DNA from: Naegleria gruberi
Lineage: Eukaryota
DNA length: 64,000 nt
Assembly (NCBI GenBank): GCA_000004985.1
Contig: GG738924.1
Reading direction: 5' to 3' (one strand)
A program made the translations under genes and the position numbers. Every line of letters starts with the position of its first letter. Positions within the stretch are counted from its first letter, which is position 1. Under the pieces are notes generated by a model, which searched no databases, was not told the DNA's origin, and saw only the letters and a program-made list of their open reading frames with translations. This document shows, piece by piece, positions 7,930 through 64,000 of the stretch.

Positions 7930-8139
7930 TTTTTTTCTTGGTTTTGGCGTACTTGAACATTTTTATTTTTGGGTTACAAAATACACTTCGAATTTTCGCT
8001 GGAACTCAAAGAAAATTTGCAGTAATCGGTGGTTTCACACTTTAAAAAAAAACGAGTTCTCATTCCAACAAGTAACACCCACGCAGTTGTTGTAGTTTGG
8101 AAGAGGAACTTTGAGATTTTTGCAAAAAAAAACAAAAGT

Positions 8140-8174
8140 GGAGTCATAGGGAATCGAACCCTAGACCTTCTGCA

Positions 8175-8205
<31 letters not shown>

Positions 8206-8211
8206 AACCCC
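8140..8211 (-). tRNA. tRNA-Ala (anticodon UGC)
   Basis: The reverse complement reads GGGGTTATAGCTCAGTTGGTAGAGCGTCTGCTTTGCATGCAGAAGGTCTAGGGTTCGATTCCCTATGACTCC. It is a cloverleaf with a G3:U70 Ala identity pair, anticodon loop CTTGCAT carrying TGC, T-loop GGTTCGATTCC and A73. A T-run terminator on the minus strand lies just 3' (+ strand 8120-8137). Confidence 0.9.
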
Positions 8212-21065: not shown

Positions 21066-24000
21066 ATGAGCAGCGTTGAATATCAGCACGGCAATGAAGT
21101 GCTTTTCATAAAGAAGGGAAGTAGTGGCGAGTCAACCAACAACAATAATAACGCGATGACCACAGAAAGTAATGATCATAAGGCACAGGAATTGGCTCAT
21201 CACGGCGATTCGAAGGATGAACATGTTGATAGTCAACATCATCACCCGAAAGGACCGTTTACATTAACGGCAGATGAATTGTCAGAGATGCATCAGAATA
21301 AGGATTTGAAAGGGTTGCAAAAGATGGGTGGAATGTCTGGTTTGATGAGAGATTTGAAAACTGATGCAAAGAGGGGGATTGCCTGGAAGTCGAATTATCA
21401 AAGTTATGATGAGAGGACGAATCTGTATGGTCTTAATGTGTATCCTGAACCGCCGGCTAAAGGTCTCTTCAAAATATTCTTTGAGGCTCTATCAGACGAA
21501 ACTCACATTATTTTAATGATATTCGCCTTCATTTCGATGGTGTTGGGATTGGCATTTCCTGAATCTGAAGAGGAAAGACCAATTGGTTGGATTGATTCGT
21601 TTGCAATTTATATAGCTGTAGCTATTGTTTGTGTGGTTACAACCGCCAACGACTATTCGAAAGAGAAAAAGTTTAAAAACTTGTCAAGAGAATCCAAAAA
21701 GGTAATGGTTAAGGTTATTAGAGATGGGGAAAATTTTAGCGTTCTCACTGATGATATCAGAGTTGGAGATATTGTTGAAATTGAACAAGGAGATGGTATT
21801 CCAGCTGATGGGCTCTGTATTGAATCAAACCATTTGAAAACAGACGAATCTGTCATGACAGGAGAACCAGATTTGATTAAGAAGAATACAACAGAATTAA
21901 TTTTCTTATTGAGTGGTTGTACAGTTGCTGAAGGTTCTGGAAAGATGCTTGTTACAGGTGTTGGTGTTGGAAGTGAATGGGGAAGAACCTTGCAAAGTTT
22001 GAAAGAAGCCAATGAAGAACAAAGAGAAACTCCTCTCGAAGCCAAATTAGATAAGCTCGCCATCAATATTGGTAAAGTTGGTACTGCATTTGCGATTGGT
22101 ACTGTTACCATTTTGATTTTGGCCTTTTGGATTAAGAAATTGATGTACACTTCAACTTGGGTTGAGGCCTCATCAACATTTGAAGAAACTTGGCAAGAAA
22201 AGAATGTAGTTGATGTGGTCAAGTACTTTATTATTGCTTTGACTATTGTCGTCGTTGCTGTCCCTGAAGGTTTACCACTTGCTGTCACAATTGCTCTTGC
22301 TTACTCTGTTCGTAAAATGATGAAAGATCAGAATTTAGTTAGACACTTGGCAGCTTGTGAGACTATGGGTGGTGCTAACAATATTTGTTCTGACAAGACT
22401 GGTACACTTACTTTGAATCAGATGAGAGTTACCCAAGCTTATTTTGGAGATCGATTCTTTGGTGAGCAATTGAGCTCAATACTGTTGACATTGAAATCAC
22501 CACTGTTGCAAGTAATCATTGATGGTATTGTTGCCAATTCAAAGGCAAACTTGGTCAAGGGTGATGACAATAATAAGAATAAGGAGTATGCCACTCAAGG
22601 AAGTAAGACTGAAGCTGCTCTTTTACTTTTACTTGTCAAACATTTGAATCAGACCATTGACAGTTACAAAGATAGAAGAAATGAATTGCTAAGTGAAGAA
22701 AGAGGCTCTCACCTCCAACTTCCATTCAATTCCAACTTGAAGCGTATGAGTACCATCGTTACAAACTCTGAGGGAGAAACCAGATATCGTCTCTTCACAA
22801 AGGGTGCTTCTGAAATTGTCCTCAAATTGTGCTCCTATCACATGGCTAGTGATGGTTCATTGAGAAAGATGGATTCTGAAAAGGAAGCTGAAATGATGAA
22901 ATGTATTGAAGATATGGCTAATCAAGGTTTGAGAACAATTTGCTTGGCCTACAGAGATGTCAATCCAGAAGTTGAATTCTCATCACGAGCTGATGAAGAA
23001 AATTATTTAGAAAATATTGATCCAGTTACCTTGGAACAAGATTTAGTATGTATTGGTATTGTAGGCATTAAGGATCCATTGAGACCTGAAGTACCAGCAG
23101 CTATTGAACAATGTAAGAAATCAGGTATCACTGTCCGTATGATTACAGGTGACAATATCTTGACAGCCAAGTATATTGCCAGAGAGTGTGGTATCTTGTC
23201 GAAGGATGGTATTGCTATTGAAGGCCCAACATTCAGAAAGATGACTCCAGAGCAAATTGATGAGATTCTTCCAAAATTACAAGTTATGGCTCGTTCCTCA
23301 CCAACTGACAAGTTTATTCTTGTAAAGCATTTGAGAAAGAAGGGTAACGTTGTTGCTGTGACTGGAGATGGTACCAATGATGCTCCAGCTCTTAAAGAAG
23401 CCGATGTTGGATTGAGTATGGGTCTTAGTGGAACCCAGGTTGCTAAGGAAGCTTCTGATATCATTATTTTGGACGATAACTTCTCATCCATTGTTAAGAG
23501 TGTGTTGTGGGGTCGTTCCATTTACGAGAATATCAGAAAGTTTTTAGTTTTCCAATTGACAGTCAACGTGGTTGCTTTGATTTTAACAATTGTTTCTGCT
23601 GTTTCGTCTGCTTTCCAACATAATTCTTCCTATAGGCCACCTTTGAGTCCTGTACAAATGTTGTGGATCAACTTGATCATGGACACGTTTGCAGCTCTCG
23701 CCCTTGCCACAGAACCTCCAATTCCAGAACTTTTAGACAGAAAACCTCACGGAAGAAAGGATTCCCTCATTACAATGAGAATGTGGACCTTCATTGCTGC
23801 TGAATCAATCTTCCAGCTCACTGTCATGTTCACACTCTTCTATGGAGCAACCTCATTCAGAGGACTTTCATTCAGCTTAGCCAGAAATGATGCTGAAATG
23901 AGAACCATCATTTTTAATGCTTTCGTATTTTGTCAAGTTTTCAATCAATTCAACGCAAGAAAGATTAATTTTGAGTATGATATTTTCAGAGGAGTTTTCA

Positions 24001-24317
24001 AGAGTTTCTGGTTTATTGGTATCACCATAATGATTTTCATTTTACAAATTGCCATCATTAACTTTGCCTATTATGATCCAATTCTTATTGGTTTGGGTAA
24101 GAATGATGGTTTGACTGCCTCCAATTTTACCCAGACCATTCCATTGAATTGGTATCAATGGGCCATAACTATTTCCATTGGTTTCATCAGTATTCCATAT
24201 GGCTTTTTAGTGAGATTCGTCAGCAGAATGTTTTTGAAATTATTGAGCTTGAAGAAGAATAACAGACAAATTACCAGTGATGGCTACGAGGAAACCTATT
24301 CCAAAGCAAGTGAATAA
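21066..24317 (+). CDS. Plasma-membrane-type Ca2+-transporting P-type ATPase (PMCA, type IIB)
   Basis: Uninterrupted 1083-aa ORF with ATG at 21066. P-type motifs are present: TGES-region, CSDKTGTLT phosphorylation site, KGASE, MITGDN, VAVTGDGTNDAPALKEADVG. It has ten predicted TM segments and strong overall similarity to PMCA/ACA pumps. Confidence 0.95.
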   Translation: MSSVEYQHGNEVLFIKKGSSGESTNNNNNAMTTESNDHKAQELAHHGDSKDEHVDSQHHHPKGPFTLTADELSEMHQNKDLKGLQKMGGMSGLMRDLKTDAKRGIAWKSNYQSYDERTNLYGLNVYPEPPAKGLFKIFFEALSDETHIILMIFAFISMVLGLAFPESEEERPIGWIDSFAIYIAVAIVCVVTTANDYSKEKKFKNLSRESKKVMVKVIRDGENFSVLTDDIRVGDIVEIEQGDGIPADGLCIESNHLKTDESVMTGEPDLIKKNTTELIFLLSGCTVAEGSGKMLVTGVGVGSEWGRTLQSLKEANEEQRETPLEAKLDKLAINIGKVGTAFAIGTVTILILAFWIKKLMYTSTWVEASSTFEETWQEKNVVDVVKYFIIALTIVVVAVPEGLPLAVTIALAYSVRKMMKDQNLVRHLAACETMGGANNICSDKTGTLTLNQMRVTQAYFGDRFFGEQLSSILLTLKSPLLQVIIDGIVANSKANLVKGDDNNKNKEYATQGSKTEAALLLLLVKHLNQTIDSYKDRRNELLSEERGSHLQLPFNSNLKRMSTIVTNSEGETRYRLFTKGASEIVLKLCSYHMASDGSLRKMDSEKEAEMMKCIEDMANQGLRTICLAYRDVNPEVEFSSRADEENYLENIDPVTLEQDLVCIGIVGIKDPLRPEVPAAIEQCKKSGITVRMITGDNILTAKYIARECGILSKDGIAIEGPTFRKMTPEQIDEILPKLQVMARSSPTDKFILVKHLRKKGNVVAVTGDGTNDAPALKEADVGLSMGLSGTQVAKEASDIIILDDNFSSIVKSVLWGRSIYENIRKFLVFQLTVNVVALILTIVSAVSSAFQHNSSYRPPLSPVQMLWINLIMDTFAALALATEPPIPELLDRKPHGRKDSLITMRMWTFIAAESIFQLTVMFTLFYGATSFRGLSFSLARNDAEMRTIIFNAFVFCQVFNQFNARKINFEYDIFRGVFKSFWFIGITIMIFILQIAIINFAYYDPILIGLGKNDGLTASNFTQTIPLNWYQWAITISIGFISIPYGFLVRFVSRMFLKLLSLKKNNRQITSDGYEETYSKASE

Positions 24318-24442
24318 ATTGTATATTATAATATAAAATTAATATTTTGAAAAATTCTTATCAATTATTTACAGTAAACATTTCCCGCCCAACAACAATT
24401 AAAAAATGAAAAAGCAAAGAAAAATTTCATCCATCAAAAAAA

Positions 24443-25210
24443 CACGGGTGGCCGACGCATATCCCTTTTGGCCTGAAATCAGCACTGGGAAAACGTGGGC
24501 CAAGTTGACTTCCAGAGAAATACATAGGTACATGATACCATATTTTCACAGTATGAGTTATCACGCTAAAAAATAATTTTGGAAAACTTTTATTAATTTT
24601 TGTATTGTTTTTGACGAGTTATAAATAAATTCCCATTTTTAGAATTTTTTAAAATGGATTAATATGGTATTATCATAATGAATACAGAAATTCATCAAAT
24701 AATATGAATCAATAATATAAATTGTGTATTAATGTACTTAAATTTCAATTTTCATTAATTCATTCCAACAAATAAAAGACTAGTTATAAAATAATAATAG
24801 GTGTCAATTGACAATCGCATTAATAGATCATACTTTATTTTAAATTGATGATATTTTAACATCACCTTATAGACATTGTATGTATAATATTTTATCATTT
24901 TAGTTGGTTGATATCAGATTATCAACAAGATAGAGCTCAACAAAACATTTTTTCCAAAATATGTTAGTGTTTTCATAAGTAAATTAAAAAAACTGACGAC
25001 AAAAGTTGCTAAATAGTGTTTAGAGAATTTTCACGTATACGACCATGTATAACGTGTTGTAATAAAAAACTAGATAGGGAAAAACATTTAATTCTAAGCT
25101 AAAATTTGAAAATACTTTTATTAACCAATATTTTTCATGTTCTAAAAATAATCAGCTTGTTTGGCCTGAAGGAGACTTCTAAAAAAAATCGCTGGAGTCG
25201 GCCACCCGTG
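24443..25210. mobile_element. Putative non-autonomous hAT-like MITE (768 bp) with 14-bp terminal inverted repeats CACGGGTGGCCGAC and 8-bp target-site duplication CAAAAAAA
   Basis: Left end 24443..24456 is CACGGGTGGCCGAC, and right end 25197..25210 is its exact reverse complement. Both are flanked by CAAAAAAA (24435..24442 and 25211..25218). The interior is AT-rich and noncoding, with a subterminal TTGGCCTGAA/ATCAGC repeat near both ends. The GC-rich termini stand out from the AT-rich intergenic DNA around them. Confidence 0.6.
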
Positions 25211-25250
25211 CAAAAAAACAAAATAAAAATTTCAATATTATTCACTCACA

Positions 25251-26627
25251 TTAATACTCATCATCTTCTTGATTGGAAGAACTTTCATCATCATTGTATC
25301 CGTACCGTTGATTCCATCGACTAGAATGAACATACTCCCTCTCTGTAGTTGTAATTTCAGGCTGAAATTCAGATAAATTTAAATAGCCTTCATTCATCTT
25401 GGCTTGATTGTTGTTGGAGTGATGATGAGAAGCAGCAGCAACACCTCCTCCTTCTCCCATCTTGCTAGCTTTACAGATGGGACACGGATACTCCTTATTA
25501 AAGCCTTTCCATGCCTTTAAACAATCCGCATGAACATTTACTCCACAACAATGACAATATCCTGCCTCCTTCTGTTCATCAAGTTGAGAAAATCCATCAC
25601 AACAAATAGGACAATTGGAAGTGATGAAGGGATTTCTCTCCTCTTCTCCTTTTAGATGTTTGTAGGTGGCTATGGCTTGTGAATTTGCCATTGAATTATT
25701 AGCTGGAGCCTTCTTGAATATTTCCTCTAATTCTGATGGTAGCAAGGCATGTTGATAGATGAGATAGGAAGACTCTTCTATACGTAGTACCTTCAACAGA
25801 ACGAATAACTTAATTTACACAACATAATAATAATAATTAACAATATATATTTACATCACGATTAACAACGAATAGATAATTAATTAGAGAGGAGAAAGTA
25901 CTTACAACATGTTTACACAGATTACCATTCTCTGCATCAGGACAATTACACGAAGGTTCTTCACCAATAACAACATCATAGACATTACCTGTTGTTCCCA
26001 TCACGACAAATGTCTGCTCATGAGCACTATTTACCTTTCTTTCTATGAGGAATAATCTACGTGATATGTGTTAAATAGTAGTATTTCATATCATTATTGA
26101 ATTAATTGTGAAATTATTGGAACAACCTACTTTTGAGTGAGAGCTCTTTCAATTCTTTCTTGAGTTTTAATTGGACAACTGGAAACAAATCTTCTCTTTC
26201 TATGTTCTTTAGATTTGTGAGAGCTAATGTGATGATGAGTGGTTGCTGCAACCTCAGCTGGTTCTTCCTTTTTTGAAATGGACAAGGAACTGAATGAATG
26301 TGGATGCAACAAATCCTCCTCCAGAATATCATCACTCACCTTCTCCTTCTTTGGACTTTCTTCCTTCTTTAATTCGGAATCATTGTGTTTTCTCTTCTCT
26401 CCATGATGATCATGATGATGTTCCTCCACCAAATGATTGAATTCTTTAATCTTTTCAATTAATTCTTCCTTTCTCAAATGGGAACAACCATGATAAATTC
26501 CCAAATCTTTCATGTGTTGTTTTAATTGGTCAACTGTGAGAGCCCACAAGTCCAAATCACTGTAGAATACTTTAAAACTGCCAGATGATGATGTAGCAGT
26601 AGAATGATGATGATCAGTTTGATGCAT
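25251..26627 (-). CDS. SAP - SWIM - RING-type zinc-finger protein (ZSWIM2/MEX-like E3 ubiquitin ligase candidate). Exon A is 26131..26627, the intron 26057..26130 (GTAGGT..GTAG), exon B 25906..26056, the intron 25809..25905 (GTAAGT..TTAAG; the alternative acceptor is 25791) and exon C 25251..25808.
   Basis: ATG at 26627. Exon A carries a SAP-like motif (LWALTVDQLKQHMKDLGIYHGCSHLRKEELIEKIKEF). Exon B encodes a SWIM finger, CNCPDAENGNLCKHV, which continues LFVLLKVL in exon C. Exon C has a RING-variant Cys/His cluster (CPICCDGF..CHCCGVNVHADCLKAW..CPIC). Every junction has canonical GT..AG and restores the frame. The ORF track shows only 26127..26627 and 25251..25796. Confidence 0.7.
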
Positions 26628-48223: not shown

Positions 48224-48311
48224 GGGTGGTTAGCTCAGCGGTAGAGCACCGGATTGCAAAGTTATTTGCAGCAGACATCCGATGGTCAGGTGTTCGATCC
48301 ACGTACCACCC
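48224..48311 (+). tRNA. tRNA-Cys (anticodon GCA) with a ~17-nt intron 3' of position 37
   Basis: GGGTGGTTAGCTCAGCGGTAGAGCACCGGATTGCAAA[gttatttgcagcagaca]TCCGATGGTCAGGTGTTCGATCCACGTACCACCC. The acceptor stem is fully paired, the anticodon loop TTGCAAA has U33 and A37, the T-loop is TTCGATC and the discriminator is U73 (a Cys identity element). The intron contains TTGCAG, which can pair with the anticodon region. A TTTT terminator follows 8 nt downstream. The isotype call depends on the intron placement. Confidence 0.7.
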
Positions 48312-48631
48312 TACCTTTTAATATTATGCAATAGTAAATAATTTATTTATTGTGTTGTCAACGATTCCTTAGTTTCGATCTTTAAATTTGTTGAAAAATA
48401 GAGAGAATTCTATTTTCTTAAATATTGCCTTGAAGAATATTGATTTGACTTGTAATTTGAAATATGAGTTGAAAAGTAAAATAGTAAATTGAAGTATTAG
48501 GGGAAATCAGATTTCTATCCAAATTTGGAACCTTACATCTAACTTTTTGAGTTTGTTCCAAATGAAAAACTATTCGAAATGGTTTAAATTATCACCATCG
48601 TTGAACTATTCCATACAACAAAAACAAAAAA

Positions 48632-49870: not shown

Positions 49871-51757
49871 TTAATCTTGTAAGATTTTGTTGGCCTTTCT
49901 CCAATTTTCAACAATGATCCTCACTGATTTGTTACTAGATTTCAATCTTTCGAATAGATCGGTCATGTTATTGAGACATGCAACTCGAACAATGTCAAAT
50001 AATGTACTGGCTATGAGTGAATCATCATTCACACTCAGAATTTCATGTTCAATTCTCAGATAAATTTGGTCAATGTTGGCAATATTCAATTCTAATGGAG
50101 ATCCTTCTTTCAGGTAGGTTTTCAATATTTTCATTGCCACCAGTTTCTTATTCTTTCGTTTGGGGGATTTTCTGAAATTTTCAATATCTCTATATGCTAA
50201 AACATCTTCATTACAATAACTCCTTGTCGCAAAATCCAATAACAATGCAAATGTCTTCCTATTTTTCAAAAATAATTCAAGTTCTGATTGAGCATACTCA
50301 GCTTGATGATTATCATTACGAATGGCATAAATGACAGGAAGAATGACTGAAATAATTATTTCCAATAATGAATAGGTCAGTAGAGTAAATCCAAATGGAA
50401 CGAAATAATCTGTCAAGAATCTGATAATCTCAATTTGTCCACTAATTATATAAGCAAGTGATAAAGCCACTTGAATAAATACCAAAACAAAAGCTTCAGT
50501 CTTAATTGACCAAGTATCTCTATCAACAAAGAAGAGAATGATCAAAAAGCTCACTTCTATCACAATGTAGAGTGCTGCTTCTGCTCCCAGCAATATAACA
50601 GTATTTGAGGTTGTAACACATCCACTATTAAATGCAAATGGACTCACATTCCACAAGAATATTCTCTTTCCACTATTACTATACGAAAGTTCATCAATTC
50701 CTCCCAATAAAGCCCAAATAGATAAGTGAATAATGAATGAAATTGTATAAGTGATTGCAATAAACTTGTAGCTCACCAAATATGAAAATATTTTGAACTT
50801 TTTGTCAGAGAAAATTGCAGAAGTGTTGTCAATGTCAGAAGAAGTGACCCACGTTTTTTGATCTTGTTCATCATGGACATCTTCTCCAGTTTCTGGAGTA
50901 ACCCGTGTTGTTGTAATCTGTTCTGAAGTTTGTGATGCATCGTTTGGATTTTCTTGTGATATATTTGAAATGGTACTCGAGTTATCAAATGTTTTTGGTG
51001 TCAATAATTCTGGTTGACTTGTCTCTGATAATTCCGTAGAAGATCCATGTTGTATAGATGCTAATGGAAGAATGGTAATACCTTTCAATTTGTCATCCTC
51101 TTGAACTTGTTGATCCACATTTTGTTCCTTTTTCACATTGGTCAATTGTTGTGGTTTTTCACTTTTCGTCTGAAACATTTGTGCCTTCTTCTTATTGAGT
51201 AAATACATGAAATAAATCCTCAAACATCGAAATACAGTTGGCAGACACAAACTAGGAATAATGATGAAAAACGAAAAAGTGTACAAGAAACATGGAAATA
51301 TTTTCCTCGAAATTGTAAATCGTAGACATGTAATGACCACAAAAGCCAAACTAGCTGATATTGTCAGTAGCATGTAAACTGGATTCCTAGCTTTGATGTG
51401 TCCACTCTTTCTCTTCCAAATAACTCCAACAGTTCCAAAAAGTGCCAACGTCAAATAGAGTGTCAAGAAGATGGATGCGATGATTGGTGTAAAGATGCTG
51501 TCTGGGCAAATATTATTTACCACTGTTGCATTGTATCCTTCACGACTCAAGTCTCCTAGATTGAACAATCTTTCGTCACATATTGAATAATTTGTTGTTG
51601 AGGTATTGTTGTTGGAAAGTTGTTGTTGTTGAATAGAATAAATTGTTGTTGCTATTGGATAACGATAATGAAAAGATTCTTGAATAAATGATGAAAGAAG
51701 GGTAAATATTCGAAATTGGGTTTCATTATTTTGACCTGCATGATGCAGCTGGTACAT
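49871..51757 (-). CDS. Seven-transmembrane receptor fused to a C-terminal RGS domain (7TM-RGS, AtRGS1-like architecture), copy 1 of a tandem pair
   Basis: 628-aa ORF with ATG at 51757. It has an N-terminal Cys-containing ectodomain (SICDERLFNLGDLSREGYNATVVNNICPDS), seven hydrophobic helices with a long Ser-rich third loop and a C-terminal RGS domain (KNRKTFALLLDFATRSYCNEDVLAYRDIENFRK..ILKTYLKEGSPLELNIANID..LFDIVRVACLNNMTDLFERL). Confidence 0.8.
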   Translation of the reverse strand: MYQLHHAGQNNETQFRIFTLLSSFIQESFHYRYPIATTIYSIQQQQLSNNNTSTTNYSICDERLFNLGDLSREGYNATVVNNICPDSIFTPIIASIFLTLYLTLALFGTVGVIWKRKSGHIKARNPVYMLLTISASLAFVVITCLRFTISRKIFPCFLYTFSFFIIIPSLCLPTVFRCLRIYFMYLLNKKKAQMFQTKSEKPQQLTNVKKEQNVDQQVQEDDKLKGITILPLASIQHGSSTELSETSQPELLTPKTFDNSSTISNISQENPNDASQTSEQITTTRVTPETGEDVHDEQDQKTWVTSSDIDNTSAIFSDKKFKIFSYLVSYKFIAITYTISFIIHLSIWALLGGIDELSYSNSGKRIFLWNVSPFAFNSGCVTTSNTVILLGAEAALYIVIEVSFLIILFFVDRDTWSIKTEAFVLVFIQVALSLAYIISGQIEIIRFLTDYFVPFGFTLLTYSLLEIIISVILPVIYAIRNDNHQAEYAQSELELFLKNRKTFALLLDFATRSYCNEDVLAYRDIENFRKSPKRKNKKLVAMKILKTYLKEGSPLELNIANIDQIYLRIEHEILSVNDDSLIASTLFDIVRVACLNNMTDLFERLKSSNKSVRIIVENWRKANKILQD

Positions 51758-51825
51758 TGTTGTCTTTTGGACGCAATTTTTTTGTTGTTGCTTGTCTCAC
51801 ACAATTAGGATATCCTACAGATCAC

Positions 51826-53757
51826 CTACAGGTTTAAACTGTTTCTACGAAAGTTAATAACCATTTCTTGTATGTTCTTGTCTGTGGCTTTCAATCTTTC
51901 AAATACATCAACCATGTTATTTAGACAGAGAACTCTAATATCATCAAACAAGGTATTGGGAATCAGAGAAGGGTTTGTTGCTTTTTGGAGAATTGATTCA
52001 ATTTCTTCATACTTTTTGGAAAGGTTTGACATGTTGAGCTCGAGAGAAGATCCACTTTTAAGATAGGTTTTCAATATTTTCGTGGCAACCTTCTTCTTGT
52101 GCTTTTTGGAAATCTTTCTAAACTTTTCAATGTCTCTGAAGGCAAGAACATCTTCAGGGCAGTAGCATCTTCTGGAAAATTCTAAAAGTAAGGCAAATGT
52201 TTTTCTATTTTTGAGAACCGTCTCAATTTCAGTTTGGGAATATCCTCCATTCTCGGTATTTAATTGTTTTTGAAACTTTCTGTCATCAATAATTGCATAA
52301 ATTACAGGTAACAATACAGCAATAAATATTTCAAATACTGAATAGGTCAGTAGAGTAAATCCAAACGGAACGAAATAATCTGTCAAAAATCTAATCACCT
52401 CAATTTGACCACTAACTAAGAATGCAATAGCTGTTATGATTTGAATCACAATTAATACAAAGGTATCTCTTTTGATATGAAAAGCATCTCTATCAGCAAA
52501 GAATAATGGAATAAAGAATGCAATCTCGATAATAATGTAGATGGCTGCCTCTGCTGCCAACATAAAGACAGTGTTAGTGTTAGTAACACAGCCTGTAGTT
52601 GCTGCAAACATGCTGATATTCCACAAGAATACTCTTTTTCCTCCATTACTAACAACAAGTTCATCGGCTCCTCCAAATATTGCCCAAATAATAAGATGCA
52701 AAATGAAGGCAACAATATACGATGAAGCAATGAGTTTGTAACTCACCAAGAAGGAATAAACCTTAAATTTCCTATCATTATAAACTGATTCTGTATAGTC
52801 CACATCAGTTGAGGTAACCCATGAACGGGAATCATCTTCAGTGTCTGAATCTACCTCACTTTTTCGTTGTTCTGATGAAACATGACTTGATGTATTGTTG
52901 TCAGTCAATGGGGTATCGGGAATGTGTGGAATAACAACACCATTATTATTGGTAGTAGTAGTAATTTCTGGAAAGGTGAATTTTTCCACACTAAAAGGTT
53001 CAACTACATCTTGATGTTCTGTTAAAGTGGTGGGAATTAATTCAAAATTGACCACTCTACTTGATGTGAGAGCTTCCCTAGACGTCGATGGACTATTGTC
53101 TTGTTGGTGACTCTGTGAATCTCTTGCTGTTGTGATGTGAGATACCACCAATGAGAGGGAAGAATTATTGTTGAGTGCAGATGATGAAGCTGAATGTTTT
53201 GATGATTCAAAAGTCATTGCTTTTCTTATATTCAACTTGTACATGAAAAAGATACGAATGAATCGGAATACTGCTGGAAGACACATTGCAGGCACTGTGA
53301 TAAAGTATGAAATAGTGTATAAAAAGCAGGGGAATATCTTTCTTCCTATAATAAATCGCAAACAAGTTGTTACGACAAAGTACAAAGTTGCCGAGATGGT
53401 CAAAATCATATGAAGTGGATTACGAGCCTTGATGTGTCCACTGTTTCTCTTCCACAACACTCCAATAATAGCCAAAGTAACCAAACACAAATAAACAAAT
53501 AGAAAAACTGCTGAAACTATTGGAGTGAAGATACTATCTGGACAAATGTTATTGACCATCGTGGCATTATATCCTTCTCGGCTCAGTTCTCCCAATTTAA
53601 AGAGTCTCTCATCACAAATAGATGATGTTGAATTACTATTTGATGAGGTATTTGATGATGCAACCAATAAAGAAGAAATAATTGTTGGCACTTGACTGCT
53701 CACGCTACTGAAGAAATATTGCAATACTTGTTGTAGTGGAATGAGTTGTGCAACCAT
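51826..53757 (-). CDS. Seven-transmembrane receptor fused to a C-terminal RGS domain (7TM-RGS), copy 2 of a tandem pair
   Basis: The track ORF 51826..53820 starts at an alternative TTG. The first ATG is at 53757 (MVAQLIPLQQ..). Domain order and many blocks are shared with the gene at 49871..51757 (SICDERLFKLGELSREGYNATMVNNICPDSIFTP; TM helices; KNRKTFALLLEFSRRCYCPEDVLAFRDIEKFRK). Confidence 0.8.
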   Translation of the reverse strand: MVAQLIPLQQVLQYFFSSVSSQVPTIISSLLVASSNTSSNSNSTSSICDERLFKLGELSREGYNATMVNNICPDSIFTPIVSAVFLFVYLCLVTLAIIGVLWKRNSGHIKARNPLHMILTISATLYFVVTTCLRFIIGRKIFPCFLYTISYFITVPAMCLPAVFRFIRIFFMYKLNIRKAMTFESSKHSASSSALNNNSSLSLVVSHITTARDSQSHQQDNSPSTSREALTSSRVVNFELIPTTLTEHQDVVEPFSVEKFTFPEITTTTNNNGVVIPHIPDTPLTDNNTSSHVSSEQRKSEVDSDTEDDSRSWVTSTDVDYTESVYNDRKFKVYSFLVSYKLIASSYIVAFILHLIIWAIFGGADELVVSNGGKRVFLWNISMFAATTGCVTNTNTVFMLAAEAAIYIIIEIAFFIPLFFADRDAFHIKRDTFVLIVIQIITAIAFLVSGQIEVIRFLTDYFVPFGFTLLTYSVFEIFIAVLLPVIYAIIDDRKFQKQLNTENGGYSQTEIETVLKNRKTFALLLEFSRRCYCPEDVLAFRDIEKFRKISKKHKKKVATKILKTYLKSGSSLELNMSNLSKKYEEIESILQKATNPSLIPNTLFDDIRVLCLNNMVDVFERLKATDKNIQEMVINFRRNSLNL

Positions 53758-54347
53758 TTTCTTTGTTGTGATCTTCAGCAACAGTGTTGACAACTTTGAT
53801 GGGAAAGGAAACTTTTCCAAGCCTCCGAAACAAAACGGGTTGATGTTATGCCTTACATATCATCTCGACTCGATTTTTTGGTTATGAAAATTTTTTGTGA
53901 TGTGTTGATTGGTATTGTATAATCTTTTTTAGGACCAAAGCTGTAATAATAATTTTTAAAAAATATTTGAAAAAGATATTGTTAATAATAATATCGGGTT
54001 GATGTTGTTAGTGTTTGAGTGGGTTAACAAGTTGAAACACCTGAAGGAATTTCAGATCAGCACGATGAGATTATTTAAATAGTAGTGGTTTTTAAATTTT
54101 TATTGTTGGACAAGTGTTCGTTGAGGAATGACCATACTCAATTCATCAATTACACGAATAACAATTTGAATATCGCCAAACAATCACTGTGTTTTACTCT
54201 TTACTTTGTGTGCTCAACAATAAAAAGAGTACTAGCCTTGAAAGCTTGTTTAGATTCTTACTGCCTTGATGTGTAACATGTCAGCCAATCTAAGGAAGTA
54301 AACGAAATATAAAAAAATATGAAACTCGTCATCACCGTTACATCAAC

Positions 54348-55889
54348 ATGAGTAATAATAGCACATCACAACAGAAGAAACGAAAATTCGAAACCAACCG
54401 ATATATGGTTGTTTTTGAGGAGTTGCTGAGAGCTCCAGAAGCAAGAGAAAATTTCAGAGGTTTTCTCAAACTGGTTCATTGTGAGGAACCTCTTCAATTG
54501 ATCGATGCCATTGATTCATACAGAACCGAACATAAAAAGCTAATAGATAATATTGATGACAGTGCTTCCGATTTTGATTTTCAAGGTTTTAAAAAGATAC
54601 TACTCCTTGTGAATCAACTTGAAAATATTGTAAATACCTTTGGATTGGAAGATTCTATTGAAAAGTTTTCACATTATTATATGGGTGCTTGGACTCGTAC
54701 ACTGAATCTCTACCATCTTGTAACACTAAAATTGGAATCCATTTCCAACTCTAACAAAACTAACAACAAGCAAATATTTGAAATTTTAGAAATTTTAAAT
54801 CCTTCCAATATTTTGGAAGATGTAGAGACAAAGGCAATTCTTGATTTGAAATATGATGAATTTCCAAGGTATGCCAGGTCGAATACGCTTCACTTGTTTC
54901 TTGTACGAAAGGGTGAAGAATATACGAGAAGAATTGCTATTAATATTGCTAACGATTTTTATGTAGATATTAGATTTAAACCTAAAGATTTTGAATCTCA
55001 ATTAATGACTGATAAGGATGTTTATTTTGCTTATACATTGAGTGAAGATACACCTGATTGGAAAGAATTAACTTGTAGCGAGAAACCTAACTTTTTACAG
55101 ACCTTTGTTTCAAAAACAGTTTATTCAATAGGACCAGACGAAATGAAAGGAATGAGATTATTTAAATTGGTAATGCATCTGCCCTATGCAGTTGAAGATG
55201 TTTGGGCTACGTATTGTGATATGAATACACGATTCAAACTTGATCACACTCTCATGAAAGATTTCAAATTGCTGAGATATATTCCACCACATCAGAAGAA
55301 ATCAAGTGAGCAACGAGATTCCATTTCATTTTATGAGATATTTGATGAGAGAGATAATCGATACACTGTGGATAAACCACCACTTGCCATTCAGATTGGA
55401 GCTCTGGGTATTGAAATGCACATTCCACTATTGAAACACAGAGACTTGCCACATACAATGACTTCACTTTATGATCCCTCGGTGAATTGTTACATGAACA
55501 TTGGTCACACGTGCAAGATTGAGGAATCACTCAGGCGTGCACCTACAGATAGAGTCAAGTCTGAAATTTTGTTCAATTACATGTTCTTTGGTACTGGAGA
55601 AAAATCAACAAGATTTATTCACACAGTGTATACAGACCTACATGTTCCTTTGGATTCTGATTTTGTTTTGAGTAAGATTTGGAAGAATAGAAGCAAACAA
55701 TTACAGGCCTCATTTGAAGAATTACTAGCAGAAAAAACCAAGGGAGGAACCATTTCCATTGACAAATCTATGGTGAATGATCATTTCAAATATTTTACAG
55801 CTGTGGAAGACAATGCCAAATTGAATAGAAAGTGGTACAGAGATTATTTGAGAAAGAAAAATCAAATGCAAATTGAATATGGTGATTGA
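54348..55889 (+). CDS. RGS-domain / START-like domain protein
   Basis: 513-aa ORF with ATG at 54348. It has an RGS-like N-terminal region (YMVVFEELLRAPEARENFRGFLKLVHCEEPLQLIDAIDSYR..KAILDLKYDEFPRYARSN) and a C-terminal START/Bet v1-like region. It resembles the RGS/START parts of the genes at 18551 and 31863. Confidence 0.65.
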   Translation: MSNNSTSQQKKRKFETNRYMVVFEELLRAPEARENFRGFLKLVHCEEPLQLIDAIDSYRTEHKKLIDNIDDSASDFDFQGFKKILLLVNQLENIVNTFGLEDSIEKFSHYYMGAWTRTLNLYHLVTLKLESISNSNKTNNKQIFEILEILNPSNILEDVETKAILDLKYDEFPRYARSNTLHLFLVRKGEEYTRRIAINIANDFYVDIRFKPKDFESQLMTDKDVYFAYTLSEDTPDWKELTCSEKPNFLQTFVSKTVYSIGPDEMKGMRLFKLVMHLPYAVEDVWATYCDMNTRFKLDHTLMKDFKLLRYIPPHQKKSSEQRDSISFYEIFDERDNRYTVDKPPLAIQIGALGIEMHIPLLKHRDLPHTMTSLYDPSVNCYMNIGHTCKIEESLRRAPTDRVKSEILFNYMFFGTGEKSTRFIHTVYTDLHVPLDSDFVLSKIWKNRSKQLQASFEELLAEKTKGGTISIDKSMVNDHFKYFTAVEDNAKLNRKWYRDYLRKKNQMQIEYGD

Positions 55890-57323: not shown

Positions 57324-58310
57324 TTTTTTTATTGTTGGAATTTTGTTTGGTTGTTGGTTGGCTTTTTATTCGAAAGTAATAGCACTCGATTTGGTTAATT
57401 TAAAAAGGAATACAATGACAGAAAGAGAATGATTGAGATAAATTTGGAGAGTTTAAATAAAAACGAGCAAATTTCATGTGTTTGAGATGAAAAGAATTGC
57501 AAATTCCAGAAGAAAATTACAAAAACACCAACATGTAATTCTAAAAATAAATTTCCAAATATTATACTGCCTTGCATGATGTTCGAAACAAAAACTGTTG
57601 TGTGAAGGAAAACTTTAGCGAAATCAGATATTCAAGAGTTACGAAATGACCTTGGGTCATGAATTGCCAGTTTTCTTTTTCATGAAGTTCAAGTTTTGAT
57701 CGCTCCCGAATATTTTAGAGTGTTATTGGCTTGTCAACATTTTGAACTTTACCCCTAAAAAAACCGAAATTCACCCTCAAAGTTGGGTGCAACTTTGAGA
57801 AAGTTTTGTTAATAATTCAGGGCTCGAAAAAAACAAAAAGTTAAGGGTATTTATATTTTACACAGTAATTGGTATCTAGTTTTTAGACCGTAAAAAAAGT
57901 AAATTTATTAAATTTGAACAAGTCTAAAATCAACTTGTCATTATTTGAAATCATGTAACAAAGCAACAGCTAAAGATTGGCCATCCACTCAAATAATCAA
58001 AGCTCAACTTGTTAATTACAGAAACATCAATATGACAATGTCATTAATCATCCACTCAAATTATAAATTGAAAGATCCAATTACATCCACTAATTTTACC
58101 ATGGCCATGTTGTTTCCACTTATCCAAATTCAGTGTATTTCCAATCAGATTATTAATTGCAAATAATTGTAGTAACAAAGAGAGAAAATTAATTCCAAAA
58201 TCCATCCCAAACCAGTTTTTGGATATAGGTGAATAAAAAATCGACAAAAAGCCAAATTGAACCAAAAAGCCAAAATCTAAAGCCAAAAATAAGTCAAGAA
58301 ATTTCCACTA

Positions 58311-58378
58311 CTGTGGTTACGCAATGAAGTGCAAGCAATTCTACAATGAAATGCAAGCAATTATTTTTTGAACTGCAA
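58311..58378 (+). repeat. Left 68-bp terminal inverted repeat of the pogo-like transposon
   Basis: Perfect reverse-complement match to 61452..61519. It contains internal direct sub-repeats GCAAGCAATT. Confidence 0.88.
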
Positions 58379-58552
58379 CGAATAATTTAATGAATTGAAA
58401 GTTTCTTGAACCACAATTCTTAAAATAGATCAAAGAGAAGTCACACTGTAAGATCAAGCTGTAGTTCTGCTTGTTTCGAATATTGATAATGAATTTGTTT
58501 ATTATATAAGATATTTTGTATTGTTATTAAGATGATTGATCACTCTTCATGT

Positions 58553-61315
58553 TCATTGAATTTTCTTTCCGAAAATTGAATCCTCCCATGACTCATTAAA
58601 TAATTCATCTAATTCTTCGTCATAATCGCCAAGCTCAATTTTAGAGCTCTTCTTGGGTTCAGATTGAAAACCTTCTGATTCCGAAAGTGGGCTTTGTGGT
58701 TCAAATTCTACTACATGTAAATGTTTCAATCTAGCAACAAGTATAGCTCTGTAATTTGAAATAGAAAATGGTTTGGTCATAATATCGACGGCATCAGATA
58801 GTGAAAATCCTGCTGAAAGAAAATCCATTAGTAATACACAATAATCACCACAATGATTTCCATCCACTTGAATTTTTTTTTGTAATGTTTTTCGAACAGT
58901 CTTTGGTTTTACAATAAATGATGGCAACATTTCAAATAATTCACTAGTCTCTGATTCTATCACTGAAAAATCCTTAGCGAAAGAATCAAAAAGAAACCAA
59001 TCAGTGGATTGACAATCATAGATTAGTAAGTACCAGTGTAATGATCTTGCCACAGGAAAAATTATAAATCCTTTTGATGTAAATTTCATACTCTTTGGTA
59101 AGTTTGTTTCTATGAATTTTTTGGATTGGTTAGTAACTCTTTGAGAGAAATCAGACGGTATGTATTGTAAATATTGTGAGCTGATTTTGGAAAAACAAAT
59201 TCCAAATATATCAAAAGTATTTCCAGGTAAGAATACAGTGTCATCTTTGATAGTCTCCAATGCCTCAGTAGATAAAGTGATTGAACAAGCAATTGTTTCT
59301 GTTGAAAGAACGTACAATTGTAGATTGGCAGCATTTTGTTGGATGTTATGGTTAAATTCTGTTTTGTTTTGTATGTGAAGTATTATTTTAGATATTTGTT
59401 CTACCTGTTTTTGGTCAAAATTTTCTTTCATGGAATCACTATCAATCCAAGGATTGTTTACATCATCTAAGATGGGATCTTGATCTAATTTCTCATCTGT
59501 CTCTACCTTAACTGATGGTGTAGGTAGTTCTACATAGAATTGACCAATACACATAGGATTAAATTCTCTGATATATAAATCATACAAATCATTATTCATT
59601 TTCAGTGAAGCTCTGACATACTTCAAGTATTCCTCTTCTGAATCATAATTCCAAATATCCATTAAACATTTTCTAAAACTATTTACAATCACATCTGGAT
59701 TCATGTTAGAAATAATCTGCTCAAATGCTGCATTTCTTGATTTTCTATCAGAATTAGAATTATTCTTTTTCCAATCAGCTAATTCTCTTTTTGCATATCT
59801 GAAACACATATTATCCAATGGTGATTGATGGTGCCCACCTACAGGAAGTAAAATGTTAATTCTATTATGTTGTTTCAAAATCTTTTGAACTGATTTACAC
59901 TTATGATGAGAGAGATTATCCCATAATAAAATGTCTCCTTCTTTTGAATTAGGAATATAAACTTTTTCAACCCATTGCTCAATATGTTCAATATGAACAC
60001 CAGCAATTTTTTCCTCAACAGTTACCTTATTACCATTAATAGTTGATTTCTTTCCTGGCACTGACTCAACAATAGACACTGGTAATACACCTCCTTCTGC
60101 CGTTACAGCAACTAAAAAAGTATCCTTAATATCATCAGCCAATTGTAAAACAACTGCATCATCGTCCTTGATTGGAGTATTTGTTCTTTCCGTCGCCTTA
60201 GTATTTGTTCCAGTTTCATCAAAAACCACAATTTTACTTCTATCAATGGATTTTAAATTTCTAAACATTATTGCTGCATAGAAGCAATAATAATAGTAGG
60301 TTCTATATAATTGCTCATAAGCTGTTTCAATTCTTTCTCTCTTGGTAATTGTTGTTTTGATCTTCCTTTTATAAAGAAACTTCTTGGAAAATTTGGAAAT
60401 ATAATCTACTGAAGGTGTTTTCTTTAATCCTGCAACTTCCTTCATTATTTCTCCAAGTCTTATATTACTAACTTGTTTTTTCTCACTCCGTTCCTTACGA
60501 GTAATATCAATAACCTGTAAAATTTGGTCTTTCAATAATAATGGAGGTGGGTGACCACGTTCAACCTTTAATGTTAGTTCATTCCTCTTGCATGCCGATA
60601 AATATCTGCTAAATTGTGAAGGTGAGATATTATTTTGTTTAGCAAATTCCTGTTGTGATCCACGGTCGGGTGTTGAATATTGTTCTTTATACTTCTCAAC
60701 AAGTTTAATTTGTTCTTCTCTTGTTTTTTGAACATAACCAACTTTTCTTTTGTTTTTAAACCCTATCAATACTATTTTATCATCAGGATTTTCCTTTTTT
60801 TCTGTCTCCTCCAGGTTTACCAGTTTTGCTTTCTTTGCTTGACTTTCATTGTATGTTTCTTGATTCCGTTCAACAATTAATAGGGCTTTTTTTTTGATGT
60901 TGTCTTCGAATGACTCATCTCTTTCATCCGTCTCTTCCTCAACAGAAGAACAAATTCTAGTTACCAATTTTGCTACCAGAGCATCTTTTCTAAGATTACC
61001 TCCTGTCTCTCCAAATTCACTCTTCAAAAACTCCTTCAAAAACTTGACATTTTTCATTGTCAATTGATCATGGATTGCCTCTTCCACATTCTCAAACTTT
61101 CGTTTTGTTCCTTTTTTTAGCTTCTTTGGTTTTTCTTCTTTTTTCTTGCCTGGTGTTTTTTCATCTTTCTTTTTAATGGGTGTGTTATCTGGTTGATCTT
61201 GTGTACAGGTCCATGAAGGAACTTGAGATACTGAAGGTAGCAAATCTATTAAATTGCTATAGCTGGAGAAGCTTTGTGGTGAAGTGTCATAGCTACTCGA
61301 TTGCTTGTTTGACAT
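58553..61315 (-). CDS. Transposase fusion protein: CENP-B/psq-type HTH domains + pogo DDE_1 transposase (DDD triad) + C-terminal Ulp1-like C48 cysteine protease domain
   Basis: ATG at 61315. HTH region: YSTPDRGSQQEFAKQNNISPSQFSRYLSACKRNELTLKVERG. DDE_1: KIVVFDETG .. ILLWDNLSHHKCKSV..INILLPVGGHHQSPLDNMCFRYAKREL. Ulp1/C48: HWYLLIY..D..QVDGNHCGDYCVLLMDFL (His/Asp/Gln/Cys). Confidence 0.85.
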   Translation of the reverse strand: MSNKQSSSYDTSPQSFSSYSNLIDLLPSVSQVPSWTCTQDQPDNTPIKKKDEKTPGKKKEEKPKKLKKGTKRKFENVEEAIHDQLTMKNVKFLKEFLKSEFGETGGNLRKDALVAKLVTRICSSVEEETDERDESFEDNIKKKALLIVERNQETYNESQAKKAKLVNLEETEKKENPDDKIVLIGFKNKRKVGYVQKTREEQIKLVEKYKEQYSTPDRGSQQEFAKQNNISPSQFSRYLSACKRNELTLKVERGHPPPLLLKDQILQVIDITRKERSEKKQVSNIRLGEIMKEVAGLKKTPSVDYISKFSKKFLYKRKIKTTITKRERIETAYEQLYRTYYYYCFYAAIMFRNLKSIDRSKIVVFDETGTNTKATERTNTPIKDDDAVVLQLADDIKDTFLVAVTAEGGVLPVSIVESVPGKKSTINGNKVTVEEKIAGVHIEHIEQWVEKVYIPNSKEGDILLWDNLSHHKCKSVQKILKQHNRINILLPVGGHHQSPLDNMCFRYAKRELADWKKNNSNSDRKSRNAAFEQIISNMNPDVIVNSFRKCLMDIWNYDSEEEYLKYVRASLKMNNDLYDLYIREFNPMCIGQFYVELPTPSVKVETDEKLDQDPILDDVNNPWIDSDSMKENFDQKQVEQISKIILHIQNKTEFNHNIQQNAANLQLYVLSTETIACSITLSTEALETIKDDTVFLPGNTFDIFGICFSKISSQYLQYIPSDFSQRVTNQSKKFIETNLPKSMKFTSKGFIIFPVARSLHWYLLIYDCQSTDWFLFDSFAKDFSVIESETSELFEMLPSFIVKPKTVRKTLQKKIQVDGNHCGDYCVLLMDFLSAGFSLSDAVDIMTKPFSISNYRAILVARLKHLHVVEFEPQSPLSESEGFQSEPKKSSKIELGDYDEELDELFNESWEDSIFGKKIQ

Positions 61316-61451
61316 TTTATAAATTTATTGCTTCTTCTGCTGATTGGAAGTTTTGATGTGTGTTTTGCAAGTTTCTTGATCAAAGTGGAAATTTATATTT
61401 AGACTTTCTTGCAGTTCGTCAGCAAGTAATTGTACTACATTGTAGAATTGC

Positions 61452-61519
61452 TTGCAGTTCAAAAAATAATTGCTTGCATTTCATTGTAGAATTGCTTGCA
61501 CTTCATTGCGTAACCACAG
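61452..61519 (-). repeat. Right 68-bp terminal inverted repeat of the pogo-like transposon
   Basis: Perfect reverse complement of 58311..58378, and immediately followed by TA. Confidence 0.88.
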
Positions 61520-61521
61520 TA

Positions 61522-62642: not shown

Positions 62643-64000
62643 ANNNNNNNNNNNNNNNNNNNNNNNNNNNNNNNNNNNNNNNNNNNNNNNNNNNNNNNNN
62701 NNNNNNNNNNNNNNNNNNNNNNNNNNNNNNNNNNNNNNNNNNNNNNNNNNNNNNNNNNNNNNNNNNNNNNNNNNNNNNNNNNNNNNNNNNNNNNNNNNNN
62801 NNNNNNNNNNNNNNNNNNNNNNNNNNNNNNNNNNNNNNNNNNNNNNNNNNNNNNNNNNNNNNNNNNNNNNNNNNNNNNNNNNNNNNNNNNNNNNNNNNNN
62901 NNNNNNNNNNNNNNNNNNNNNNNNNNNNNNNNNNNNNNNNNNNNNNNNNNNNNNNNNNNNNNNNNNNNNNNNNNNNNNNNNNNNNNNNNNNNNNNNNNNN
63001 NNNNNNNNNNNNNNNNNNNNNNNNNNNNNNNNNNNNNNNNNNNNNNNNNNNNNNNNNNNNNNNNNNNNNNNNNNNNNNNNNNNNNNNNNNNNNNNNNNNN
63101 NNNNNNNNNNNNNNNNNNNNNNNNNNNNNNNNNNNNNNNNNNNNNNNNNNNNNNNNNNNNNNNNNNNNNNNNNNNNNNNNNNNNNNNNNNNNNNNNNNNN
63201 NNNNNNNNNNNNNNNNNNNNNNNNNNNNNNNNNNNNNNNNNNNNNNNNNNNNNNNNNNNNNNNNNNNNNNNNNNNNNNNNNNNNNNNNNNNNNNNNNNNN
63301 NNNNNNNNNNNNNNNNNNNNNNNNNNNNNNNNNNNNNNNNNNNNNNNNNNNNNNNNNNNNNNNNNNNNNNNNNNNNNNNNNNNNNNNNNNNNNNNNNNNN
63401 NNNNNNNNNNNNNNNNNNNNNNNNNNNNNNNNNNNNNNNNNNNNNNNNNNNNNNNNNNNNNNNNNNNNNNNNNNNNNNNNNNNNNNNNNNNNNNNNNNNN
63501 NNNNNNNNNNNNNNNNNNNNNNNNNNNNNNNNNNNNNNNNNNNNNNNNNNNNNNNNNNNNNNNNNNNNNNNNNNNNNNNNNNNNNNNNNNNNNNNNNNNN
63601 NNNNNNNNNNNNNNNNNNNNNNNNNNNNNNNNNNNNNNNNNNNNNNNNNNNNNNNNNNNNNNNNNNNNNNNNNNNNNNNNNNNNNNNNNNNNNNNNNNNN
63701 NNNNNNNNNNNNNNNNNNNNNNNNNNNNNNNNNNNNNNNNNNNNNNNNNNNNNNNNNNNNNNNNNNNNNNNNNNNNNNNNNNNNNNNNNNNNNNNNNNNN
63801 NNNNNNNNNNNNNNNNNNNNNNNNNNNNNNNNNNNNNNNNNNNNNNNNNNNNNNNNNNNNNNNNNNNNNNNNNNNNNNNNNNNNNNNNNNNNNNNNNNNN
63901 NNNNNNNNNNNNNNNNNNNNNNNNNNNNNNNNNNNNNNNNNNNNNNNNNNNNNNNNNNNNNNNNNNNNNNNNNNNNNNNNNNNNNNNNNNNNNNNNNNNN
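62643..64000. other. Assembly gap (1358 N)
   Basis: Run of n characters to the end of the window, directly adjacent to the repeat elements. Confidence 0.99.

Follow-up and report, generated by a model that had tools for sequence, protein, structure and literature searches.

The question at this locus

Two convergent genes of Naegleria gruberi are separated by a stretch of AT-rich DNA in which a GC-rich 14-mer recurs in inverted orientation, and this raises the question of whether the segment is a transposon insertion and, if so, to which superfamily it belongs. We examined it within a window of 64 kb, the whole stretch of DNA that was analysed, and the coordinates given here and in Table 1 refer to that window. 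The N. gruberi genome comprises 40.9 Mb with 35% GC and 5.1% repeats (PMC6125883), and only a small fraction of its repeats can be assigned to known transposable elements (PMC12344493). Families on record include Harbinger, MuDR and Kolobok (PMC3164196, PMC9587614), and a literature search that covered papers other than the 2010 genome paper gave no account of either hAT elements or MITEs in Naegleria. A single small non-autonomous element in the compact genome of a protist would on its own be routine; since the repeats of this species are poorly classified, an element with clean termini and a clean duplication is a seed for a family and transposase search.

Table 1. Coordinates of the 768-bp element, its flanking duplication and the two neighbouring genes.
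Feature	Position	Strand	Details or evidence
PMCA-type Ca2+-ATPase, single 1083-aa ORF	21066..24317	+	stop codon 24315-24317
Left duplication copy CAAAAAAA, putative target-site duplication	24435..24442	.	direct reading, inverted-repeat control
Left TIR CACGGGTGGCCGAC, 79% G+C	24443..24456	+	direct reading, repeat finder, shuffles
Left subterminal GC-rich region	24457..24506	+	composition and motif positions
AT-rich interior, 22.7% GC	24507..25146	.	composition, ORF, Pfam, Rfam
Right subterminal GC-richer region	25147..25196	+	repeat finder and motif positions
Right TIR GTCGGCCACCCGTG, exact reverse complement of left arm	25197..25210	-	direct reading, repeat finder
Right duplication copy CAAAAAAA	25211..25218	.	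direct reading, inverted-repeat control
SWIM/RING protein gene	25251..26627	-	stop codon 25251-25253
SWIM/RING exon ORF, RING	25251-25796	-	
SWIM/RING exon ORF, SWIM	25837-26004	-	
SWIM/RING exon ORF, third	26127-26627	-	

Boundaries and composition of the element

Direct reading and a repeat finder agree on the two terminal inverted repeats (TIRs), which are complementary at 14/14 positions and separated by 740 nt, so that the whole element, 24443-25210, measures 768 bp. Immediately outside each arm stands the same octamer, CAAAAAAA, as a direct repeat. Both the GC-rich inverted repeat and the abutting 8-bp duplication had been proposed from the bare sequence, and we recovered them at the same coordinates. 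The flanks match in the 8-bp register only, registers of 1-7 and 9 bp failing (the left flank ends in TCAAAAAAA and the right one begins with CAAAAAAAC); at 2-5 bp, A-runs on the left are set against a C followed by A's on the right. Outwards, the 14-bp inverted repeat allows no extension. Towards the interior the two ends share short direct similarities only, with no inverted similarity beyond the 14 bp.

The base composition follows the same boundaries. The element has 27.5% GC overall and the DNA outside it 18-19%, and GC islands occupy its ends, with 56% in the first 64 nt and 47% in the last 64 nt against 19-23% in the surroundings. The tetramer GGCC occurs at 24450, 24470 and 24498 near the left end, and 5 of the 45 GGCC sites of the window lie 60 nt or less from an end of the element. 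The left subterminal region also carries TTGGCC in reverse orientation (GGCCAA, 24498-24503). The longer motif TTTGGCCTGAA is found at 24467-24477 and 25160-25170, its only two occurrences in the whole window and one per end, and AATCAGC is found at 24477-24483 and 25150-25156. Subterminal repeats near both ends, as the sequence-only reading had described them, are therefore present, and their orientation is direct rather than inverted (TTTGGCCTGAA and AATCAGC alike).

The segment has no coding capacity. The longest ORFs are of 44-72 aa, none above 72 aa touches the element and none above 47 aa lies wholly within the interior; a Pfam search of the ORFs of the element gave no match, and Rfam, at gathering and permissive thresholds over 24300-25300, gave nothing credible. 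The description of the segment as AT-rich and noncoding thus stands. The size (below about 800 bp), TIRs, target-site duplication and absence of coding capacity by which MITEs are defined structurally are all found in the 768-bp element.

Genomic setting

The two neighbours are the genes that had been named from the sequence. The Ca2+-ATPase ORF is 100% identical to a predicted Ca-ATPase of Naegleria gruberi, and the opposite gene shows a SWIM domain (PF04434, 30.9 bits, above the Pfam cut-off) and a zf-RING_2 match of 25.2 bits, slightly under the cut-off of 27.3. The stop codon of the former stands 125 nt ahead of the left TIR and that of the latter 40 nt past the right TIR. The spacer between the two genes measures 933 bp, against 103-352 bp for the five other convergent ORF pairs of the window, and once the element and one copy of the duplication are subtracted it falls to 157 bp, inside the normal range. 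Because the remainder is of normal length, the setting resembles an insertion into an ordinary short spacer.

The element probably lies in, or at the end of, the 3' untranslated region of the SWIM/RING gene. This position makes it a candidate for strain polymorphism and for altered 3'-end formation of both convergent genes. As the element begins only 40 nt past the SWIM/RING stop codon, an influence on the neighbouring genes is plausible as a candidate effect.

A probable non-autonomous transposon insertion

Taking termini, duplication, composition and setting together, we consider it likely that the segment 24443-25210 arose when a non-autonomous class II (TIR, cut-and-paste) DNA transposon inserted here once. 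A transposase supplied from elsewhere in the genome would recognise the 14-bp termini, and probably also the GGCC-containing subterminal motifs, excise the element and join its 3' ends to target DNA opened at the octamer by cuts staggered by 8 bp; gap repair would then yield the octamer twice. The element, which carries no gene, would have inserted into what was then a short gap separating the two convergent genes at their 3' ends. If this is correct, the empty allele would be about 776 bp shorter and read ...CATCAAAAAAACAAAATA... across the site. Against a transposon stand the single copy seen, the A-run nature of the octamer and the lack of inverted similarity between the ends past 14 bp.

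Superfamily of the element

Provided that the element is a transposon, a hAT-like affiliation is the leading single candidate, tentatively and at somewhat less than an even chance, owing to a duplication of 8 bp, a short TIR and subterminal motifs that are placed asymmetrically. An 8-bp target-site duplication is a feature of hAT elements, which are by far the most widespread superfamily combining it with short TIRs (PMC1131882, PMC3014272), and the perfect 14-bp TIR falls inside the short-TIR range of the superfamily (about 10-25 bp). The resemblance is closest to non-autonomous hATs (Ds1-type elements, MITEs such as Mar, and Anolis hAT-N), with which the element shares the 8-bp duplication, a short 14-bp TIR starting with CA, a small size, the lack of coding capacity and an unrelated AT-rich interior. 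Short motifs clustered asymmetrically in the subterminal regions are likewise known from the ends of Hermes, Ac and Tol2 (PMC10368747). The GC-rich TIR has the general form CA..G.TGGCC.AC, as does CAGTGATGGSSAACCT, the degenerate TIR consensus of hAT-HT1_AC (Table 1 of PMC3014272), and against CAGTGATGGCCAACCT, one reading of that consensus, 10 of the 14 positions agree by eye. We gave no weight to the occurrence in the TIR of GTGGC, the Hermes/hobo subterminal repeat, since the role of the Hermes motif has been revised to AAGT (PMC10368747).

The duplication and the short TIR agree with the hAT assignment made in the sequence-only reading, and the termini do not. The terminal motif of hAT elements is YARNG / CNYTR (PMC3014272), and in CACGG...CCGTG the third position is C instead of a purine. 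The target site allows a further comparison. Buster-type hATs prefer the pattern nnnTAnnn. For the Ac/Hermes type the preference is nTnnnnAn (PMC10368747). The octamer CAAAAAAA (on the other strand TTTTTTTG) fits the latter, whichever strand is read, at one position out of two and lacks a central TA; one insertion alone cannot establish a preference.

A transposon of another superfamily that duplicates 8 bp (P, Zisupton/KDZ, Merlin, Novosib, a Mutator-like element or an undescribed heterolobosean lineage) is a real possibility, if one to which we would give slightly less than even chances. In the Repbase classification, P, Merlin and Novosib make duplications of about 8 bp, which counts in favour of such an origin, and the comparison with P and Merlin covers this length only. 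Zisupton/KDZ also duplicates 8 bp (PMC12730594), and here too the comparison is one of duplication length only. The termini argue in the same direction, being CAC...GTG and not YARNG (PMC3014272), as do the MuDR family on record in N. gruberi (PMC3164196) and the large majority of repeats of this genome that are unclassifiable as known transposable elements (PMC12344493). On the other side are the far wider distribution of hAT elements among superfamilies that pair an 8-bp duplication with short TIRs (PMC1131882, PMC3014272) and the layout of the TIR, with the 10/14 agreement by eye with hAT-HT1_AC (PMC3014272). The MuDRF elements of N. gruberi make 9-bp duplications (PMC3164196), and the 9-bp register is mismatched here. 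The general traits of Mutator-like elements, duplications of 9-11 bp and usually long TIRs, are absent, since that register fails (TCAAAAAAA versus CAAAAAAAC) and the TIR has only 14 bp. The TA duplication of Tc1/mariner/pogo elements is absent too, the bordering bases being A before the left junction and C after the right one.

The ends 5'-CAC...GTG-3' recall those of the CACTA/EnSpm-Chapaev-Transib (CMCT) group (PMC12730594, PMC3014272, PMC1131882). EnSpm, Chapaev and Transib make duplications of 2-5 bp (PMC12730594, PMC1131882), whereas in this element the 8-bp register alone matches. Unlike Transib, the element has no heptamer, 23-nt spacer and nonamer at either end (by eye against the consensus of PMC1131882), and its target is A-rich whereas Transib favours GC-rich targets. 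With CAC...GTG termini being an EnSpm/Chapaev/Transib trait (PMC12730594) and the 8-bp duplication one of hAT (PMC1131882, PMC3014272) and Zisupton (PMC12730594), the combination is a little out of the ordinary, and the superfamily assignment therefore deserves a check. It seems unlikely that we have here the first known representative of a heterolobosean TIR lineage, so far undescribed, that joins these two traits, the former of them also RAG-like; if it were so, the element would belong to a new superfamily or to a divergent clade of hAT elements whose termini are atypical. We file the element as a TIR transposon with an 8-bp duplication, the labels hAT and MITE being unproven.

Expectation by chance

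A GC-rich 14-mer might also recur in inverted orientation at 740 nt between chance poly-A flanks with no mobile element involved, which we judge to be very unlikely. AT-rich inverted repeats of 14 nt do arise by chance, and the window has five perfect inverted repeats of 14 nt or more with both arms within 3 kb, against 4.35 per first-order Markov shuffle of the window (n=300). In G+C content the arms stand apart from this background: inverted repeats with at least 11/14 G+C appeared in none of the 300 shuffles, those with at least 8/14 G+C at 0.013 per shuffle, and only eleven 14-mers of the window are equally GC-rich.

The duplication was assessed against all perfect inverted repeats of the window that are 10 nt or longer and have arms up to 5 kb apart, 946 in number. 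No flanking direct repeat was present at 829 of them and one of 2-4 bp at 116; none had one of 5-7 bp, and the sole 8-bp case is the 768-bp element itself. The octamer is admittedly a low-complexity A-run, of which the window holds 10 copies (1.6e-4 per position) together with 44 A7 and 46 T7 runs, and the element is single-copy as far as is visible in the window and in the metagenome and viral scans described below. The sequence-only reading had kept a coincidental poly-A context for the flanks as its fallback, against which it counts that 0/945 other inverted repeats have a flanking repeat of 5 bp or more. The additional GGCC and TTTGGCCTGAA motifs confined to both ends, and a spacer of normal length once the segment is taken out, also argue against coincidence. 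On the strength of the G+C shuffle result and the 946-repeat control we regard the structure as real and dismiss the poly-A coincidence. A 21-nt A-rich similarity between the flanks (24409-24429 versus 25214-25234) returned by the repeat finder was rejected as part of the element, its register being off and its character typical of the A-rich background.

That the arms are instead a functional cis-element (3'-end, termination or regulatory) shared by both convergent genes is highly improbable, for although CACGGGTGGCCGAC reads in sense orientation after each stop codon, 125 nt and 40 nt downstream, the motif is found nowhere else in the 64 kb with up to 3 mismatches despite the presence of five or more further convergent gene pairs, such a motif gives no reason to expect an 8-bp direct repeat on the same strand next to both arms, and the flanks differ when read in sense orientation (A7 versus T7G).

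Search for copies, relatives and an empty site

Elsewhere in the window neither the TIR, with up to 3 mismatches allowed, nor the interior recurs, a result that is uninformative, since any family with fewer than about 2000 members in 41 Mb would be expected to show just one of them in a stretch of 64 kb. The window contains no BED or hAT-dimerisation transposase. A scan of metagenomes with the pattern TIR, gap, TTGGCC gave 94 loci, 93 of them GC-rich (median 67%) and the remaining one at 42% GC; all were rejected as chance matches, the second arm being present in none and the match never extending beyond 16-21 nt. Among the matches listed, a scan of viral contigs with the 14-mer gave single-arm chance matches only, and 51 kb of other Naegleria loci contained no related sequence. 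A phmmer search with the 56-aa ORF that spans the left end, against 1.84 billion proteins, revealed no genuine mis-annotated copies, and its three matches were set aside as artefacts of internally repetitive proteins.

The closest PMCA loci are two of N. lovaniensis and one on a Naegleria contig of the ENA, and by tblastx they have the PMCA gene alone in common with the window; downstream of it they carry a prefoldin gene. Identity of the PMCA protein to the nearest available genomes is about 73%, and a closer relative is absent from the protein database. With synteny broken and protein identity at this level, an empty site is undefinable in those loci. The N. lovaniensis contig PYSW02000053.1 (166 kb) contains the same PMCA protein twice in opposite orientation (142614-165838, and 44030-67254 reversed), accompanied both times by the same set of neighbours for 23 kb or more; the arrangement reflects a large inverted duplication or else a palindrome created in assembly.

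An apparently intact transposon in the same window

At 58309-61521 the window holds an apparently intact autonomous DNA transposon. Its 84-nt TIRs, which start with CTGTGGTTACG, are 93% complementary and contain internal subrepeats of about 22 nt, and both ends read TA followed by CTGTGGTTACGCAATGAAG, which indicates a TA duplication. One ORF of 920 aa (58553-61315, minus strand) encodes the protein EFC36924.1. This protein has a sub-threshold match to Pfam DDE_3 (23.5 bits against a cut-off of 28.6), and at its C-terminus an H..D..C motif (HWYLLIYD ... GNHCGDYC) resembles by eye that of an Ulp1-type protease, for which Pfam gave no match in EFC36924.1. Homologues outside N. gruberi were not found at E≤1e-5. 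A second copy, EFC35964.1, lies on a 16-kb contig and is 99.6% identical as a protein. The intact structure and the nearly identical protein elsewhere in the genome suggest that N. gruberi hosts apparently active cut-and-paste elements and that the one at 58309-61521 was probably recently active. The Harbinger, MuDR and Kolobok families on record for this species (PMC3164196, PMC9587614) agree with this, and the presence of such elements favours the transposon reading of the 768-bp segment. Although both this element and, on our reading, the 768-bp one are TIR DNA transposons, they differ in duplication (TA versus 8 bp) and in TIR length (84 versus 14 nt), and since its termini are unrelated to CACGGGTGGCCGAC it is not the autonomous counterpart of the 768-bp one.

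Other features of the window

The 10-mer TATTCGAAAC has 14 exact copies in the window, where shuffles lead one to expect 0.04, and 53 sites when up to one mismatch is allowed. The exact copies lie at 372, 424, 2048, 2235, 18510, 27160, 35844, 36130, 39028, 44553, 45165, 46134, 47026 and 58473; some stand 14-61 nt upstream of the ATG of a long ORF and others lie in coding ORFs, in differing frames. Three inverted pairs of this 10-mer explain several of the AT-rich 13-14-nt inverted repeats of the window.

Rfam places tRNA genes at 48224-48312 (+) and 8138-8211 (-), with 46.9 and 72.2 bits, and ARAGORN returned the second only, as tRNA-Ala(TGC); the match at 48224-48312, 89 nt long, may represent a tRNA gene with an intron. 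The window ends in 1357 N (62644-64000), an assembly gap or padding, and the last real kilobase before them has 24.7% GC. An RGS domain is present in three adjacent long ORFs, 49871-51757 (-), 51826-53820 (-) and 54348-55889 (+), which suggests a local cluster of paralogues over 49871-55889.
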